In this document: positions 16,961 through 19,325 of the stretch, piece after piece
Numbering within the stretch: position 1 is the stretch's first letter
How the letters are laid out: each line of letters begins with the position of its first letter
Assembly: GCA_016188385.1 (NCBI GenBank)
Contig: JACPHV010000002.1
Coordinates: forward strand, 24,116-88,115
DNA from: Candidatus Uhrbacteria bacterium
Lineage (GTDB): Bacteria > Patescibacteriota > Patescibacteriia > JACQRZ01
Direction of reading: 5' to 3'
DNA: 64,000 bases
Notes under the pieces: generated by a model
What the model was told of the DNA's origin: nothing
The model's database searches: none
The model's input: the letters and a program-made list of their open reading frames with translations, nothing else
Translations under genes and position numbers: made by a program

Positions 16961-17017
16961 CATGTTTTCCTTTGGCCTAACGGCCAGCTCTTAAAAAGAA
17001 TCCGATTTTGTTTTTCT
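16961..17017 (+). repeat. Repeat family A, copy 1. A 57-bp element with a palindromic core (ggcctaacggcc).
   Basis: Near-identical to 19266-19325 in direct orientation and to 19100-19160 in inverted orientation. The core palindrome differs between copies but stays palindromic. Confidence 0.7.
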
Positions 17018-17039
17018 TTTTTATTAGGGGAAATACGGT

Positions 17040-17063
17040 GTCCCGCCGTATTCTCGGCGGGAC
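17040..17063. other. Perfect 9-bp stem hairpin (gtcccgccg-tattct-cggcgggac) followed by ATTTTATAAAAAAAA.
   Basis: Read directly. Lies between the divergent xer gene and the island genes. Confidence 0.4.
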
Positions 17064-17098
17064 GATTTTATAAAAAAAATACTGTATACTAAATTCAT

Positions 17099-17371
17099 AT
17101 GAGCAATACCATAAAAACAGGTGGTTCCGAATACAACGATATTACCCAACATGAAATTCATGCCTTAAAAACCGAATTGAATCTTGCTGATGCGCATACC
17201 CACCAATCACAATCCAAGTCTCAACAAAAGAGCATAGTTGAAAACCTACCACGCCTGTGGAGTGAATCTGAACGTGCAAAACAAGTAGAAATGGAGGATA
17301 GGTTTTTGATTACTTTTTTTAGAGTGTTAAATCAGGAAGACGCACTAAAAGGGCGGTGGCAAATTATTTGA
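17099..17371 (+). CDS. Hypothetical 90-aa protein. Possibly the detached N-terminal segment of the downstream aminotransferase-like gene.
   Basis: AT-rich ORF overlapping the next ORF by 16 nt in a different frame. Confidence 0.35.
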   Translation: MSNTIKTGGSEYNDITQHEIHALKTELNLADAHTHQSQSKSQQKSIVENLPRLWSESERAKQVEMEDRFLITFFRVLNQEDALKGRWQII

Positions 17372-18246
17372 TGAAGAAAAAAATGTCCGTGGCGTTGATT
17401 GAACCTTGTTTTGACAACCTGCATGATATATTGATGCACATGCAAGTCCCACTCTCTGTCTTACAAGAAGAATGGCTGTCAAATCCAAAAACGCTCTATA
17501 AAAACCTTAAGAAAAATATCACTGCGGATGCCATTTTTATAGTTGATCCAAACAATCCTACCGGACACACACTATTTAAACATCATGAGAAAGCATACAA
17601 CGAACTTATACGTTATTGTCGTGAAAATAACAAATTACTCATCATTGATTATTGTTTTGCACCATTCGTTGACTACGCGCCGGAAATAGAAGTGCCTCCA
17701 ATTTACAAAATGCTCCGTGAGTCAGGGGTACAATACATCAGTATTGAAGACACGGGAAAAACCTGGCCGCTTCAAGATACGAAAGTCGCAATGCTAAAAG
17801 TGTGTGATGAGTTGTATGAAGAGATTTATAATATACACACGGCATACTTATTGAATGTTTCTCCCTTCATTTTAAATTTGGTTACAGAGTATATCCTGGA
17901 TTCAGAAAAGGATGATTTCGGCTCGGTATACAGTTTGCTCATAAAAAATTCCAAAATCGGACAAAAAATTCTAGCCGGTTCCTTGCTGGAATATCAAGAA
18001 CCTCAAGCGAGTGTGAGTGTCATGTGGCTCAAAATCACCAACTCCAAAGTGAAGGCAACCGATTTACAAAAGTTTATTTTTGACCATTCTGGGGTCTATG
18101 TTTTACCAGGTACGTATTTTTTTTGGAGCAATCCCAAAAAAGGACAACGATTTATTAGAGTGGCTATGGCAAGAGATACGGATGTGTTTACCAAGGCCAT
18201 AAAAAAGCTACGAAAAGCACTCGACGAGTATGAAAGAAAACTCTAA
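17356..18246 (+). CDS. PLP-dependent aminotransferase class I/II-like protein. Its N-terminal ~90 aa are missing or split off.
   Basis: IVDPNNPTGHTL (the NPxNPTG motif). DYCF in the DEAY position. DTGKTW in the SFSK lysine position. C-terminal …RFIRVAMARD… It is ~80-100 aa shorter at the N-terminus than typical family members. Confidence 0.5.
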   Translation: MANYLMKKKMSVALIEPCFDNLHDILMHMQVPLSVLQEEWLSNPKTLYKNLKKNITADAIFIVDPNNPTGHTLFKHHEKAYNELIRYCRENNKLLIIDYCFAPFVDYAPEIEVPPIYKMLRESGVQYISIEDTGKTWPLQDTKVAMLKVCDELYEEIYNIHTAYLLNVSPFILNLVTEYILDSEKDDFGSVYSLLIKNSKIGQKILAGSLLEYQEPQASVSVMWLKITNSKVKATDLQKFIFDHSGVYVLPGTYFFWSNPKKGQRFIRVAMARDTDVFTKAIKKLRKALDEYERKL

Positions 18247-19027
18247 AATGAATGGATTGTTTGTTCCTCTCATCACACCTTTTTATCAAGGTGATTTTGA
18301 TGTGGCTTCAATGAAAAAATTGGTCGGAATTTTACAAAATAGCGTTGATGGTGTTATTCCCTGTCTTAGTTCTGGTGAAGGCGGAAAACTTTCTGATCTG
18401 GAATGGCAAAAAATTGTAGAAACCGTTTGTAAGACAACAACAAAACCAGTGTTTGCTGGGATACTAAGGGATACAGAGCAAAAGTGCCTTGCTCTAATAA
18501 AAAAATCAAATTGGCTTCCTTGCGAGGGCATCGTTATTCCAACACTCTATGATTACGAAGAAAAAAATTTGAAGTTTGTTAAAAGGGCATGCAATTTATC
18601 AAAAAAATCAATCATAGTATACAACACAGAAAAACATCCGTTTCGGTCAGTAGAAGTTATCATGAAAATTGATAAGTTCCCCAACATCGTCGCTGTAAAA
18701 GACAGTTCAATGGACATGATTTTTTTAAAAAAACTTCTTACTCTGAAAAGACGGGGAAAACTACGCTTGAGTATTTTTCAAGGCATGGAACATTTACTGT
18801 TACCATCCCAAGGTTGCGACGGATACATCTTGTCGCTACTCAATACCGAATCAAAGTTGTGCGCAACTGTATTCAAAAAGACCAATACTCAAAACAATAA
18901 AAAAATGCACAAAGTATTTTGGGAGCAAAATTTGGGGGGTAATTGGTACACTACACTCAAAGGCATCCTCTATGAACGTGGGATTATAAGATCAGCAGAA
19001 GAAATCAGACCACCAATAAAGCCGTAG
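18230..19027 (+). CDS. DapA/N-acetylneuraminate-lyase family class I aldolase.
   Basis: N-terminal GLFVPLITPF… and the IVAVKDSS motif around the Schiff-base lysine. 265 aa. Confidence 0.6.
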   Translation: MKENSKMNGLFVPLITPFYQGDFDVASMKKLVGILQNSVDGVIPCLSSGEGGKLSDLEWQKIVETVCKTTTKPVFAGILRDTEQKCLALIKKSNWLPCEGIVIPTLYDYEEKNLKFVKRACNLSKKSIIVYNTEKHPFRSVEVIMKIDKFPNIVAVKDSSMDMIFLKKLLTLKRRGKLRLSIFQGMEHLLLPSQGCDGYILSLLNTESKLCATVFKKTNTQNNKKMHKVFWEQNLGGNWYTTLKGILYERGIIRSAEEIRPPIKP

Positions 19028-19044
19028 TGTAAAAAAAAGAGGTG

Positions 19045-19097
19045 TTTGGGACGGAGGCAATTCACCCCTTTAATTCCCCTCTTGCCTCCGCCCCAAA
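19045..19097 (+). repeat. Hairpin family D, copy 1. 15-bp stem, loop attcacccctttaattcccctct.
   Basis: tttgggacggaggca / tgcctccgccccaaa arms. The loop is almost identical to the copy at 26523-26573, which has a different stem. Confidence 0.7.
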
Positions 19098-19099
19098 CG

Positions 19100-19160
19100 G
19101 AAAAACAAAATCGGATTCTTTTTAAGAGCCATTTGCTACCGCAAATGAAAGGAAAACATG
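19100..19160 (-). repeat. Repeat family A, copy 2, in inverted orientation.
   Basis: gaaaaacaaaatcggattctttttaagagc…aaaggaaaacatg is the reverse complement of copy 1. Confidence 0.7.
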
Positions 19161-19171
19161 TACATCATATA

Positions 19172-19256
19172 ACACTGGCTATGCGGTTCGGGCTTTTCCA
19201 AAGCCCTCTCCCATATTGCTCCCTCCGGTCGCAACATCGCATAGCCAGGAACGTTG
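19172..19256 (+). repeat. Structured repeat family B, copy 1. About 85 nt with an outer 11-bp stem, an inner hairpin and a conserved single-stranded core tctcccatattgctccct.
   Basis: Other copies at 24168-24252 and 26711-26800. The outer stem ctggctatgcg/cgcatagccag becomes cagcgtatgcg/cgcatacgctg in copy 3, which is compensatory. Confidence 0.7.
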
Positions 19257-19265
19257 TACGAAATG

Positions 19266-19325
19266 CATGTTTTCCTTTTGGGCTAACGCCCTGGCTCAAA
19301 AAAAGAATTCAATTTTGTTTTTTTA
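19266..19325 (+). repeat. Repeat family A, copy 3, in direct orientation.
   Basis: catgttttccttttgggctaacgccctggctcaaaaaaagaattcaattttgttttt. Confidence 0.7.

Follow-up and report, generated by a model that had tools for sequence, protein, structure and literature searches.

A probable integron-like gene cassette array beside a Xer-like recombinase gene in Candidatus Uhrbacteria

Introduction

What kind of element is formed by inverted repeats that stand around genes, and around each other, next to a recombinase gene? The window analysed here is a stretch of 64,000 nucleotides (64 kb) of Candidatus Uhrbacteria DNA (assembly GCA_016188385.1, contig JACPHV010000002.1, positions 24,116 to 88,115 of the forward strand). 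It contains two repeat families, A and B, interleaved with genes, the first of which encode a pyridoxal phosphate (PLP)-dependent enzyme and a DapA-like aldolase. A sequence-only reading of the same DNA proposed that A2 (inverted), B1 and A3 (direct) make up a miniature inverted-repeat transposable element (MITE). The order that it gave for 19095-19327 is correct, and A1 and A2 do stand as inverted repeats around the genes at 17099-19027, which form a discrete cassette. The MITE itself does not hold up: there is no target-site duplication (TSD) and no dispersal, and the two A arms around B1 come from different units. The inverted repeats are better read, from their sequences, as the matching ends of mobile gene cassettes than as a miniature transposon. 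We consider it highly probable that 16948-26800 is a chromosomal integron-like cassette array of Candidatus Uhrbacteria, served by a divergent Xer-like recombinase of 270 aa. Coordinates are given in Table 1, and loci from other assemblies are referred to by L numbers.

Structure of the B sites

Each B element appears to be an attC-like core, with the anatomy R''-L''...L'-R' and an R' box of the GTTRRRY type. The consensus reads ..CATC-(nnnTAAC)-A-(11-nt L'')-GTT-hairpin-CTYCACCCATAT-short hairpin-ACATC-(11-nt L')-NAAC-(GTTnnnn)-GAAAT, and the sites fold as hairpins of 90-110 nt, typically ~95 nt, in which the TAAC of R'' and the GTT of R' are near-invariant. The 11-bp L''/L' helix is 95% paired and shows double (compensatory) changes at 10 of its 11 pairs, whereas only 81% of positions pair between R'' and the adjacent R', the mismatches falling at the variable positions. 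A two-base mismatch recurs 9-10 nt outside the R boxes, where ..CATC on the R'' side faces GAAAT on the R' side.

The loop is conserved in a different way. The motif CTYCACCCATAT(T)GCT, with the core CCACCCATAT, is near-invariant together with the ACATC before L'. It occurs at 19210-19222, 24205-24217 and 26749-26760 and in all B-like sites aligned, and it is conserved across phylum-level groups where the stems only covary. Since canonical attC loops are variable, the conserved loop suggests an accessory factor or a superimposed function.

A covariance model (CM R1) was built from five B copies and used with a cutoff of E<1e-4. It returns 26 matches, three of them in the window (and none elsewhere in it) and the others at L003, L012, L013, L015, L016, L019, L020, L022, L024 and L027. 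At every locus the matches lie upstream of a recombinase homologue, on the opposite strand. The hosts are Uhrbacteria, Falkowbacteria, Vogelbacteria and unclassified Patescibacteria. As a negative control, 747 kb around 50 Xer-like genes from non-Patescibacteria phyla (recombinase matches of <45% identity, mostly ordinary Xer genes of Firmicutes and Chloroflexi) gave 0 matches to CM R1. Rfam returned chance-level matches only, both for the whole window at the gathering threshold and for 16.8-24.6 kb at E<=10 (Spot 42, 19 bits against a gathering threshold of 80), and a scan of the window found no tRNA or tmRNA.

Some sites are irregular. The B2 repeat similarity spans 24155-24264 in the repeat search. 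B3 gives a weaker repeat match, over 26714-26800; the 100 nt at window positions 26701-26800 share 92% identity with a site in L022, as far as ...GGAACG. In place of the R' side stands a piece from the interior of another site (GGCTCGCCCCTCACGCAAATTTTGCT, window 26801-26830), so the distal end of the array has decayed. Hybrid or decayed sites are also seen in L003, at 287-379, 976-1088 and 5033-5137; the first combines the L'' of one site type with the L' of another, and two sites are right-half truncations.

The A repeats as probable cassette ends

The three A copies of the sequence-only reading are all present, each of them longer than first reported, with a fourth, diverged one (A4) at the end of the second unit. 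All four match an nhmmer profile of A with E = 1e-14 to 2e-19. In the alignment, conserved flanks enclose a hairpin core whose sequence differs from copy to copy while its pairing is kept, which bears out the earlier description of palindromic but dissimilar cores (ggcctaacggcc at 16974-16985 in A1, catttgctaccgcaaatg in A2 and gggctaacgccc in A3). The core stems are GGCC/GGCC, CATTTGC/GCAAATG, GGGC/GCCC and ATCC/GGAT.

Do the two arms around B1 belong together, as the ends of one element? For each site, the 30 nt up to and including R'' were reverse-complemented and compared with the 30 nt from the adjacent R' and with the 30 nt from the previous R' or the recombinase-proximal junction, i.e., the start of the site's own cassette. 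The R'' arm matches its own cassette start better in 14 of 17 cassettes and the adjacent R' better in two, with one tie; summed over the 17, there are 206 matches to the own start and 132 to the adjacent R'. For A2 (reversed, GTTATATGATGTACATGTTTTCCTTT), 20/22 positions match A1 (GTTATATGAAATACATGTTTTCCTTT) and 17/22 match the adjacent A3 (GTTGTACGAAATGCATG....). Predicted folding energies agree: A2 plus B1 (to G 19253) joined to A1 (from T 16949) gives -79.5 kcal/mol for the top strand and -85.5 kcal/mol for the bottom strand, whereas A2, B1 and A3 as they stand give -57.0 and -62.7 kcal/mol, weaker by 22-23 kcal/mol. Complementarity of R'' to the R' at the 5' end of the same cassette is the signature of a circular intermediate in classical integrons.

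Because A2 matches A1 better than A3, A1 and A2 are most simply the two ends of one cassette, with A3 as the start of the next; A2-B1-A3 would thus be a junction between cassettes rather than an element. The A family would then consist of cassette-specific outer arms that extend the R''/R' stem of the attC-like sites. Other cassettes have arms of their own, 20-30 nt long (for example, GTTATGTGAAAGCGCGGAAATTTTTTT and its inverse in L003), so family A looks like an unusually long version, bearing side hairpins, of a general cassette feature.

In the MITE proposal, A2-B1-A3 makes up an element of 225 bp, with a terminal inverted repeat on each side and a transposase acting in trans, and a composite bounded by A1 and A2 moves the PLP/DapA genes. 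The inverted repeat-core-inverted repeat geometry at 19095-19327 and the inverted A copies on either side of the three open reading frames (ORFs) fit it, and so does the likeness to MITEs in general, as short non-coding units with terminal inverted repeats. The difference lies in the rest: A1, 2.1 kb away, is a far better pairing partner for A2 than A3 is, the arms on either side of B1 come from separate, adjacent units, and no TSD surrounds A2-B1-A3 (left flank ...CCCCAAAC, right flank ATTAATTTG). Inspection of the sequence reveals no duplication common to the flanks of 16948...19173 either. A MITE would be expected in dispersed copies, whereas all A (n=4) and B (n=3) copies of the 64-kb window fall within 16.9-26.8 kb. 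In relatives, a profile search places every A-like sequence directly against a B site or the recombinase-proximal junction (as in L018, L019, L024, L015 and L089). Thus A and B occur at cassette junctions, in one orientation, beside a recombinase gene, and covarying B stems suit a structure-specific site rather than sequence-specific ends bound by a transposase.

The array spans 16948-26800, with cassette 1 at 16949-19253, a second unit to 24249 and a third that ends in B3. A4 was considered as the partner of A3 and rejected, as only ~60% of positions match and its R'' AGCTAAC is not complementary to GTTGTAC; the unit at 19.25-24.26 kb is therefore read as fused or decayed cassettes. Fusion is the probable case, given the mismatch of R'' to the start of the unit and the partial C hairpins (described below) within it.

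At L024 652-912, two attC-like sites lie only 12 bp apart; the cassette between them consists of nothing but its own pair of inverted arms, and has the appearance of an empty cassette.

The junction beside the recombinase gene

Where does the array begin? In ~19 relatives, the DNA upstream of the recombinase gene reads ...TTCGCATAGAAACGA^GTTnnnnGAAAT (in short, ...AACGA^GTT, with ^ marking the boundary), and the sequences diverge after GTT. The window version is GATATCAACGA^GTTATAT. A1 begins exactly at this conserved junction, which argues against a MITE. Many genomes also carry an inverted partner, AACTCGTTTCTAT, 16-40 nt upstream. The first cassette differs among L003, L088, L007 and the window, and L088 and L003 differ by one cassette exactly here. 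As in classical integrons, comparison thus places an attI-like site next to the recombinase gene, with insertion at G^TT.

Assemblies tend to stop at the same point. A Logan contig of the same strain (L001, 1.6 kb) ends at window position 16950, in the GTT of the junction, and L002/L007, L010, L011, L017 and L023 likewise break at or just past the junction, no more than ~180 bp into the first cassette, whereas in L006 and L021 the break is nearer the gene, short of the junction. Such breaks are what a polymorphic or repeated junction would produce, and a cassette array accounts for their recurrence directly upstream of the recombinase gene in metagenome-assembled genomes (MAGs) of Patescibacteria.

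Between the gene and the junction lies a palindrome of 28-30 bp, found in the window's clade, with arms conserved and centre variable in L003, L007 and L088. In its 11-6-11 form (16896-16923) it occurs once in the window, beside the recombinase gene, and it overlaps promoter-like hexamers of that gene on the minus strand (16944-16916), including the -10. By its sequence it could be a dif site, an operator or a set of accessory recombinase-binding sites. It was considered as the insertion point, in the manner of dif, and rejected because similarity between genomes runs 24 bp past it, to ...AACGA^GTT. A consensus scan found no convincing plus-strand promoter in 16862-16948, although the consensus may not be that of Patescibacteria.

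The recombinase

The gene at 16050-16862 encodes the only tyrosine recombinase in the 64-kb window. It adjoins A1 at a distance of 86 bp, with fmt next on its other side. The sequence-only reading had not linked this gene to the repeats and had looked to a cognate transposase elsewhere, an expectation that the recombinase now replaces; Pfam and NCBIfam scans of the ORFs between 12.6 and 24 kb found no transposase among them.

The protein matches Pfam Phage_integrase and Phage_int_SAM_4, and it scores 221.7 bits against NCBIfam NF040815 ('site-specific tyrosine recombinase/integron integrase', cutoff 220). Against the integron integrase model TIGR02249 it reaches 209.7 bits, in two stretches and below the cutoff of 265, and against PRK15417 133.7, below 435. 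Among structures in the PDB, archaeal XerA (4a8e, 5hxy) aligns with it over its whole length, and VchIntIA (Vibrio IntI4, 2a3v) in two pieces only, query residues 179-201 standing opposite IntI4 183-249. By this alignment, the IntI-specific insertion of ~44 residues (the I2 helix region) is absent.

An identical protein is annotated in a Candidatus Uhrbacteria genome, and very many homologues (259-291 aa, >60% identity) occur in Patescibacteria, spread over many phylum-level groups. Four contigs with a Patescibacteria-type recombinase and cassette sites (L009, L016, L022 and L025) sit in MAGs labelled Gammaproteobacteria or Lysobacteraceae; these labels probably reflect mis-binning of small contigs that break at the array.

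Cassettes in different genomes

The sequence-only reading named presence or absence of the PLP/DapA genes among relatives as an informative test, and relatives do differ in their first cassette. L003 has the same flanking synteny as the window: a recombinase (81% identical), then fmt and GT2/Wzy. On the other side of its recombinase gene lie 10 kb of small genes, all divergent from it, with B-like elements in most of the intergenic gaps and mostly one small gene per cassette; the cargo includes GrpB, NUDIX, Fic and glyoxalase-like proteins.

L088 was found in a scan of metagenomes with the palindrome. Its first cassette, after ...GATATAAACGA^GTT, encodes a PQ-loop protein; in L003 the same cassette is second, behind an alpha/beta-hydrolase cassette. 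The two copies are 92.6% identical over 394 nt, where the recombinase genes of the two loci are 72% identical, and the similarity begins at GTT and stops at ...AC^G of an attC-like site. A Fic cassette is likewise common to both loci, in another position. One cassette thus stands at different array positions in different genomes, with its boundaries at GTT.

The PLP/DapA cassette itself is found in four contexts: the window, L089, L090/L091 and L092. In L089 it is followed by an A2-like arm (with the hairpin ATTTGCTAYCGCAAAT) and a B-like site. In L090/L091 it comes first after an attI-like junction. In L092 the genes for the PLP enzyme and the DapA-like aldolase, with a gene of 142 aa, form the second cassette, and the nearby recombinase is 38% identical to that of the window. 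A leader made up of a terminator-like hairpin and then TACTGTATAMT is conserved across the copies. A co-oriented array whose content differs between relatives, with all sites on one strand, is also characteristic of classical integrons.

In L092 the cassette is bounded, at 6315-6335 and 9083-9100, by collapsed sites of the form R''-AAGG-R' (TATAACAAGGGTTAGGC and GCCTAACAAGGGTTAGGC) without the L''...L' interior, which the homologous site in L090 retains; they represent either a minimal site type or recurrent deletion of the hairpin.

At L090 6640-6700, the attI-like junction TTCGTACAGAAACGA^GTTAGGC precedes the cassettes, and the genes upstream are radical-SAM and housekeeping genes.

Proposed mechanism

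By analogy with integrons, a cassette would start at the TT of an R' box (GTTnnnn) and finish with the closing G of the attC-like site that follows. Its parts would be, in order, R', outer arm, terminator-like hairpin and promoter-like box, one or more genes, C hairpin, inverted outer arm, R'', L'', loop and L'. The recombinase would excise the cassette as a circle through two attC-like sites, and the circle would be inserted again at the attI-like site beside the recombinase gene, where strands would be exchanged at G^TT. Since the stems keep their pairing and not their sequence, the enzyme probably recognises the attC-like partner in folded form, as a hairpin or cruciform. Catalysis by this particular enzyme, folding of a single strand and the choice of strand would follow from the same analogy.

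Several points weigh against an integron-like array. The recombinase is without the additional domain (around patch III) that is specific to IntI and is held necessary for attC recombination (Messier and Roy 2001, as cited in PMC9668308). Its high conservation across Patescibacteria would also fit a housekeeping Xer role. No product of recombination, for example a circular junction or an empty site in the same strain, was directly observed. At B2, R'' fits the R' next to it rather than the beginning of its 5-kb unit, and some sites are hybrid or truncated (L003 287-379 and 976-1088; window B3). The conserved loop motif CCACCCATAT is absent from canonical attC and could have another function, as a protein-binding site or an RNA element. 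Finally, L090 has no recombinase gene within ~6 kb upstream of its attI-like junction; by analogy with clusters of attC sites lacking integron integrases (CALINs), it would be an orphan array.

Alternative explanations

The main rival is a set of modules of the Xer/dif type (integrative mobile elements exploiting Xer, IMEX, or pdif-like modules), in which a housekeeping Xer enzyme would carry out conventional double-strand recombination at dif-like sites, with no folded hairpins. It differs from an integron-like array mainly in mechanism, a double-stranded against a folded substrate. The enzyme favours it: the recombinase is XerA-like from end to end, has no IntI insertion and is very conserved, features compatible with a host Xer that resolves chromosome dimers. 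For XerS and XerH, dif adjoins the recombinase gene, and here a 28-bp 11-6-11 palindrome does so. Smyshlyaev et al. 2021 (PMC8138268) placed Xer-related recombinases of candidate phyla in a subgroup, 'Cand', proposed as the Xer of these phyla, the Xer role being assumed. The sites tell against it. The cassette boundaries are covarying hairpins of 90-110 nt and not sequence-conserved 28-bp copies of dif, as such modules would have; the sites are all direct, whereas pdif modules alternate; the junction is at GTT, 24 bp from the palindrome; and the GTTRRRY-like R' box, together with the complementarity of a cassette's own ends, is an integron signature. The covarying stems in particular argue against a double-stranded substrate, and we regard this explanation as improbable.

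A second rival gives the repeats no part in recombination. They would be terminators, mRNA-stabilising hairpins like repetitive extragenic palindromes or structured non-coding RNAs, merely inherited with the genes. Their position downstream of ORFs, in the sense orientation, as stable hairpins is what this would predict, and the loop motif and the C hairpins suggest sequence-specific recognition. The lack of an Rfam match and of a T-run after B or C speaks against it, and it leaves unexplained why similarity starts and stops at GTT, why an R'' arm corresponds to the opposite end of the cassette it belongs to and why the sites are confined to the neighbourhood of the recombinase gene. This explanation is very improbable, although the sites may have a secondary, terminator-like role besides recombination.

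The MITE reading is already largely refuted by the arm pairing, the flanks and the distribution of copies described above, and we give it next to no credence.

Relation to known systems and significance

An integron-like array thus remains the preferred reading, and the closest known systems are the sedentary chromosomal integrons. As in these, a divergent tyrosine recombinase gene stands beside co-oriented, mostly single-gene cassettes, with the insertion point directly beside the gene. The sites are imperfect palindromes, R''-L''...L'-R', with TAAC in R'' and GTTnnnn in R' (GTTAGGC and GCCTAAC occur), in which pairing is conserved over sequence. The boundary is at G^TT, R'' is complementary to the R' of its own cassette, cassette order varies between relatives and the array is lower in G+C; in the window, G+C falls from ~0.49 to 0.37-0.42 between 16 and 26 kb.

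The array is not filed as a canonical integron because the additional domain is absent and because spacer geometry, loop motif and extended arms differ. The recombinase has only 270 aa, without the insertion that defines IntI, and scores below the TIGR02249 cutoff. One nucleotide separates R'' from L'', and a 4-nt NAAC bulge separates L' from R', where canonical sites have unpaired spacers of 5 nt. The loop CCACCCATAT...ACATC is conserved where canonical attC is variable, and cassette-specific palindromes (the A family), some bearing side hairpins, lengthen the R arms by 20-75 bp. Each cassette also seems to have a leader of its own, terminator-like and promoter-like, and the host belongs to the Patescibacteria. 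Ghaly et al. (PMC9668308) described integrons in archaea whose IntIs, unlike the recombinase here, are canonical.

The Xer systems (XerA, XerS/difSL, XerH/difH and 'Cand') share with this recombinase their length and architecture, a single and highly conserved gene and an adjacent 28-bp palindrome. The conserved junction here is ...AACGA^GTT and not the palindrome itself. We know of no Xer system that maintains arrays of structure-conserved hairpin sites separating exchangeable cassettes.

Likenesses also exist to CALINs, as attC-like arrays without a canonical IntI, and to integron-like recombinases without canonical attC; here both halves are physically linked and vary together across genomes. 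According to a 2026 study (PMC13323075), recognisable attC is missing from 97% of the contigs that carry 'integron-type' recombinases, and the authors suggest that novel attC types exist. If the array is what it appears to be, it helps to explain such recombinases, and current tools would miss the sites or file them as orphan clusters. In open-access full-text literature we found no published description of arrays of this kind, or of integrons with attC in Patescibacteria.

Integron integrases are thought to derive from Xer-like recombinases through an insertion that handles folded, single-stranded attC (PMC4792948, PMC7790495). The same insertion serves both to define the integrases and to find integrons computationally. 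An integron-like array served by an enzyme without it would be a natural test case for the origin of hairpin-site recombination, and would add the ultra-small, host-dependent Patescibacteria, in which gene acquisition is poorly understood, to the organisms that exchange genes as cassettes.

We further propose, tentatively and at somewhat less than an even chance, that Patescibacteria carry a widespread and unrecognised class of integron, in which a plain Xer-type integrase without I2 or the additional domain acts on long, structure-specific hairpin sites and is perhaps also the dimer-resolving enzyme. Such a class would be a living example of the transition from Xer to IntI and would make the additional domain dispensable for cassette capture; the extended A arms, the loop motif and the NAAC bulge may compensate for it.

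Features of the window array

Table 1. Positions of the sites, repeats and genes of the array in the window
Feature	Positions	Strand	Description
Tyrosine recombinase	16050-16862	-	270 aa, XerA-like / integron-integrase-like; divergent from cassette array
dif-like palindrome	16895-16924		TGATATGATAC-N8-GTATCATATCA; as 11-6-11, GATATGATACC ATATTA AGTATCATATC; between recombinase start codon and junction
attI-like junction	16937-16950	+	GATATCAACGA^GTT; putative crossover at or within GTT 16948-16950
A1	16948-17021	+	5' end of cassette 1, partner of A2 (repeat finding, alignment, nhmmer); R' GTTATAT, GAAAT, TTTTCCTTT, hairpin GGCCtaacGGCC, A/T-rich arm
Cassette-1 leader	17039-17064	+	Terminator-like G+C-rich hairpin and T run, then TATACT -10-like box upstream of ATG 17099
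MppP-like PLP-dependent enzyme gene	17099-18246	+	Two frames, 17099-17353 and 17356-18243
DapA/DHDPS-family aldolase	18230-19027	+	Second gene of cassette 1
C hairpin 1	19044-19098	+	17-bp G+C-rich stem; loop ATTCACCCC..TAATTCCC..CTC; after last gene of cassette
A2	19095-19173	-	3' end of cassette 1, inverted partner of A1; terminal R'' ATATAAC 19167-19173
B1	19167-19259	+	R'' 19167-19173, L'' 19175-19185, internal hairpin, conserved CTCCCATATTGCT, L' 19238-19248, bulge GAAC, R' GTTGTAC 19253-19259; CM R1 119.9 bits
A3	19253-19327	+	5' end of next cassette; R' GTTGTAC, GAAAT, TTTTCCTTTT, hairpin GGGCtaacGCCC, arm
Second-unit genes	19373-24046	+	FAD oxidoreductase, RhuM (two ORFs), 311-aa unknown, Fic protein
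Partial C hairpins	~21608-21632, ~22737-22761		Inside second unit
C hairpin 2	24050-24099	+	
A4	24093-24172	- (A2 orientation)	Diverged A-type arm, 3' end of second unit; terminal R'' AGCTAAC
B2	24163-24255	+	R'' AGCTAAC, L''/L' ctgactatgcg/cgcatagccag, R' ATTAGCT; CM R1 110 bits
C hairpin 3	26522-26574	+	91% identity over 47 nt to Falkowbacteria L019 hairpin
B3	26698-26800	+	Last attC-like site

A third family of hairpins, C, lies between the last stop codon of a cassette and its A arm. The stems are G+C-rich and 15-17 bp long, of the GTTTGGG...CCCAAAC type, the loop given for C hairpin 1 in Table 1 is conserved, and the C hairpin and the B loop share TTCACCC. No T-run follows B or C in the window. 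Homologues occur at L019 ~7386-7432, L024 ~960-1010, L090 ~9245-9300 and L092 ~8925-8975, and the hairpins are conserved across the arrays of Uhrbacteria and Falkowbacteria. They could be terminators, protein-binding sites or a second type of site. A second, inverted attC type was considered in particular, and no boundary evidence supports it.

The leader of cassette 1 has homologues in L089, L090 and L092 that keep ...CGATTTT..TACTGTATAAT. More generally, cassette leaders share a hairpin whose end reads ...(C)TCCGAAAACGATTTT or GGGACGATTTT, then sequence rich in A/T and, near the ATG, a TATAMT box; this pattern is seen in the window at 17039-17070, ~21700-21725 and ~24385-24415, and at ~6440-6460 in L092. 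These sequences suggest that each cassette carries an upstream terminator (insulator) and its own promoter, unlike classical cassettes, which are promoterless and expressed from a common Pc promoter.

Two genes of the array are broken. The PLP gene lacks ~15 residues relative to intact homologues of 392-399 aa, with the break beside an A7 run (gaagaaaaaaatg); either the gene is a pseudogene or the assembly is wrong here. The RhuM-family gene falls into two ORFs, 20582-21214 and 21242-21604, which cover profile positions 3-139 and 150-248, and is probably another disrupted cassette gene.

Just past the array, an ORF of 2150 aa (27920-34372) contains at least nine copies of a 56-nt repeat (GGCAACGTCGGSATYGGGACGACG...) at 28663-33218, irregularly spaced and encoding motifs of the GNVGIGTT type.

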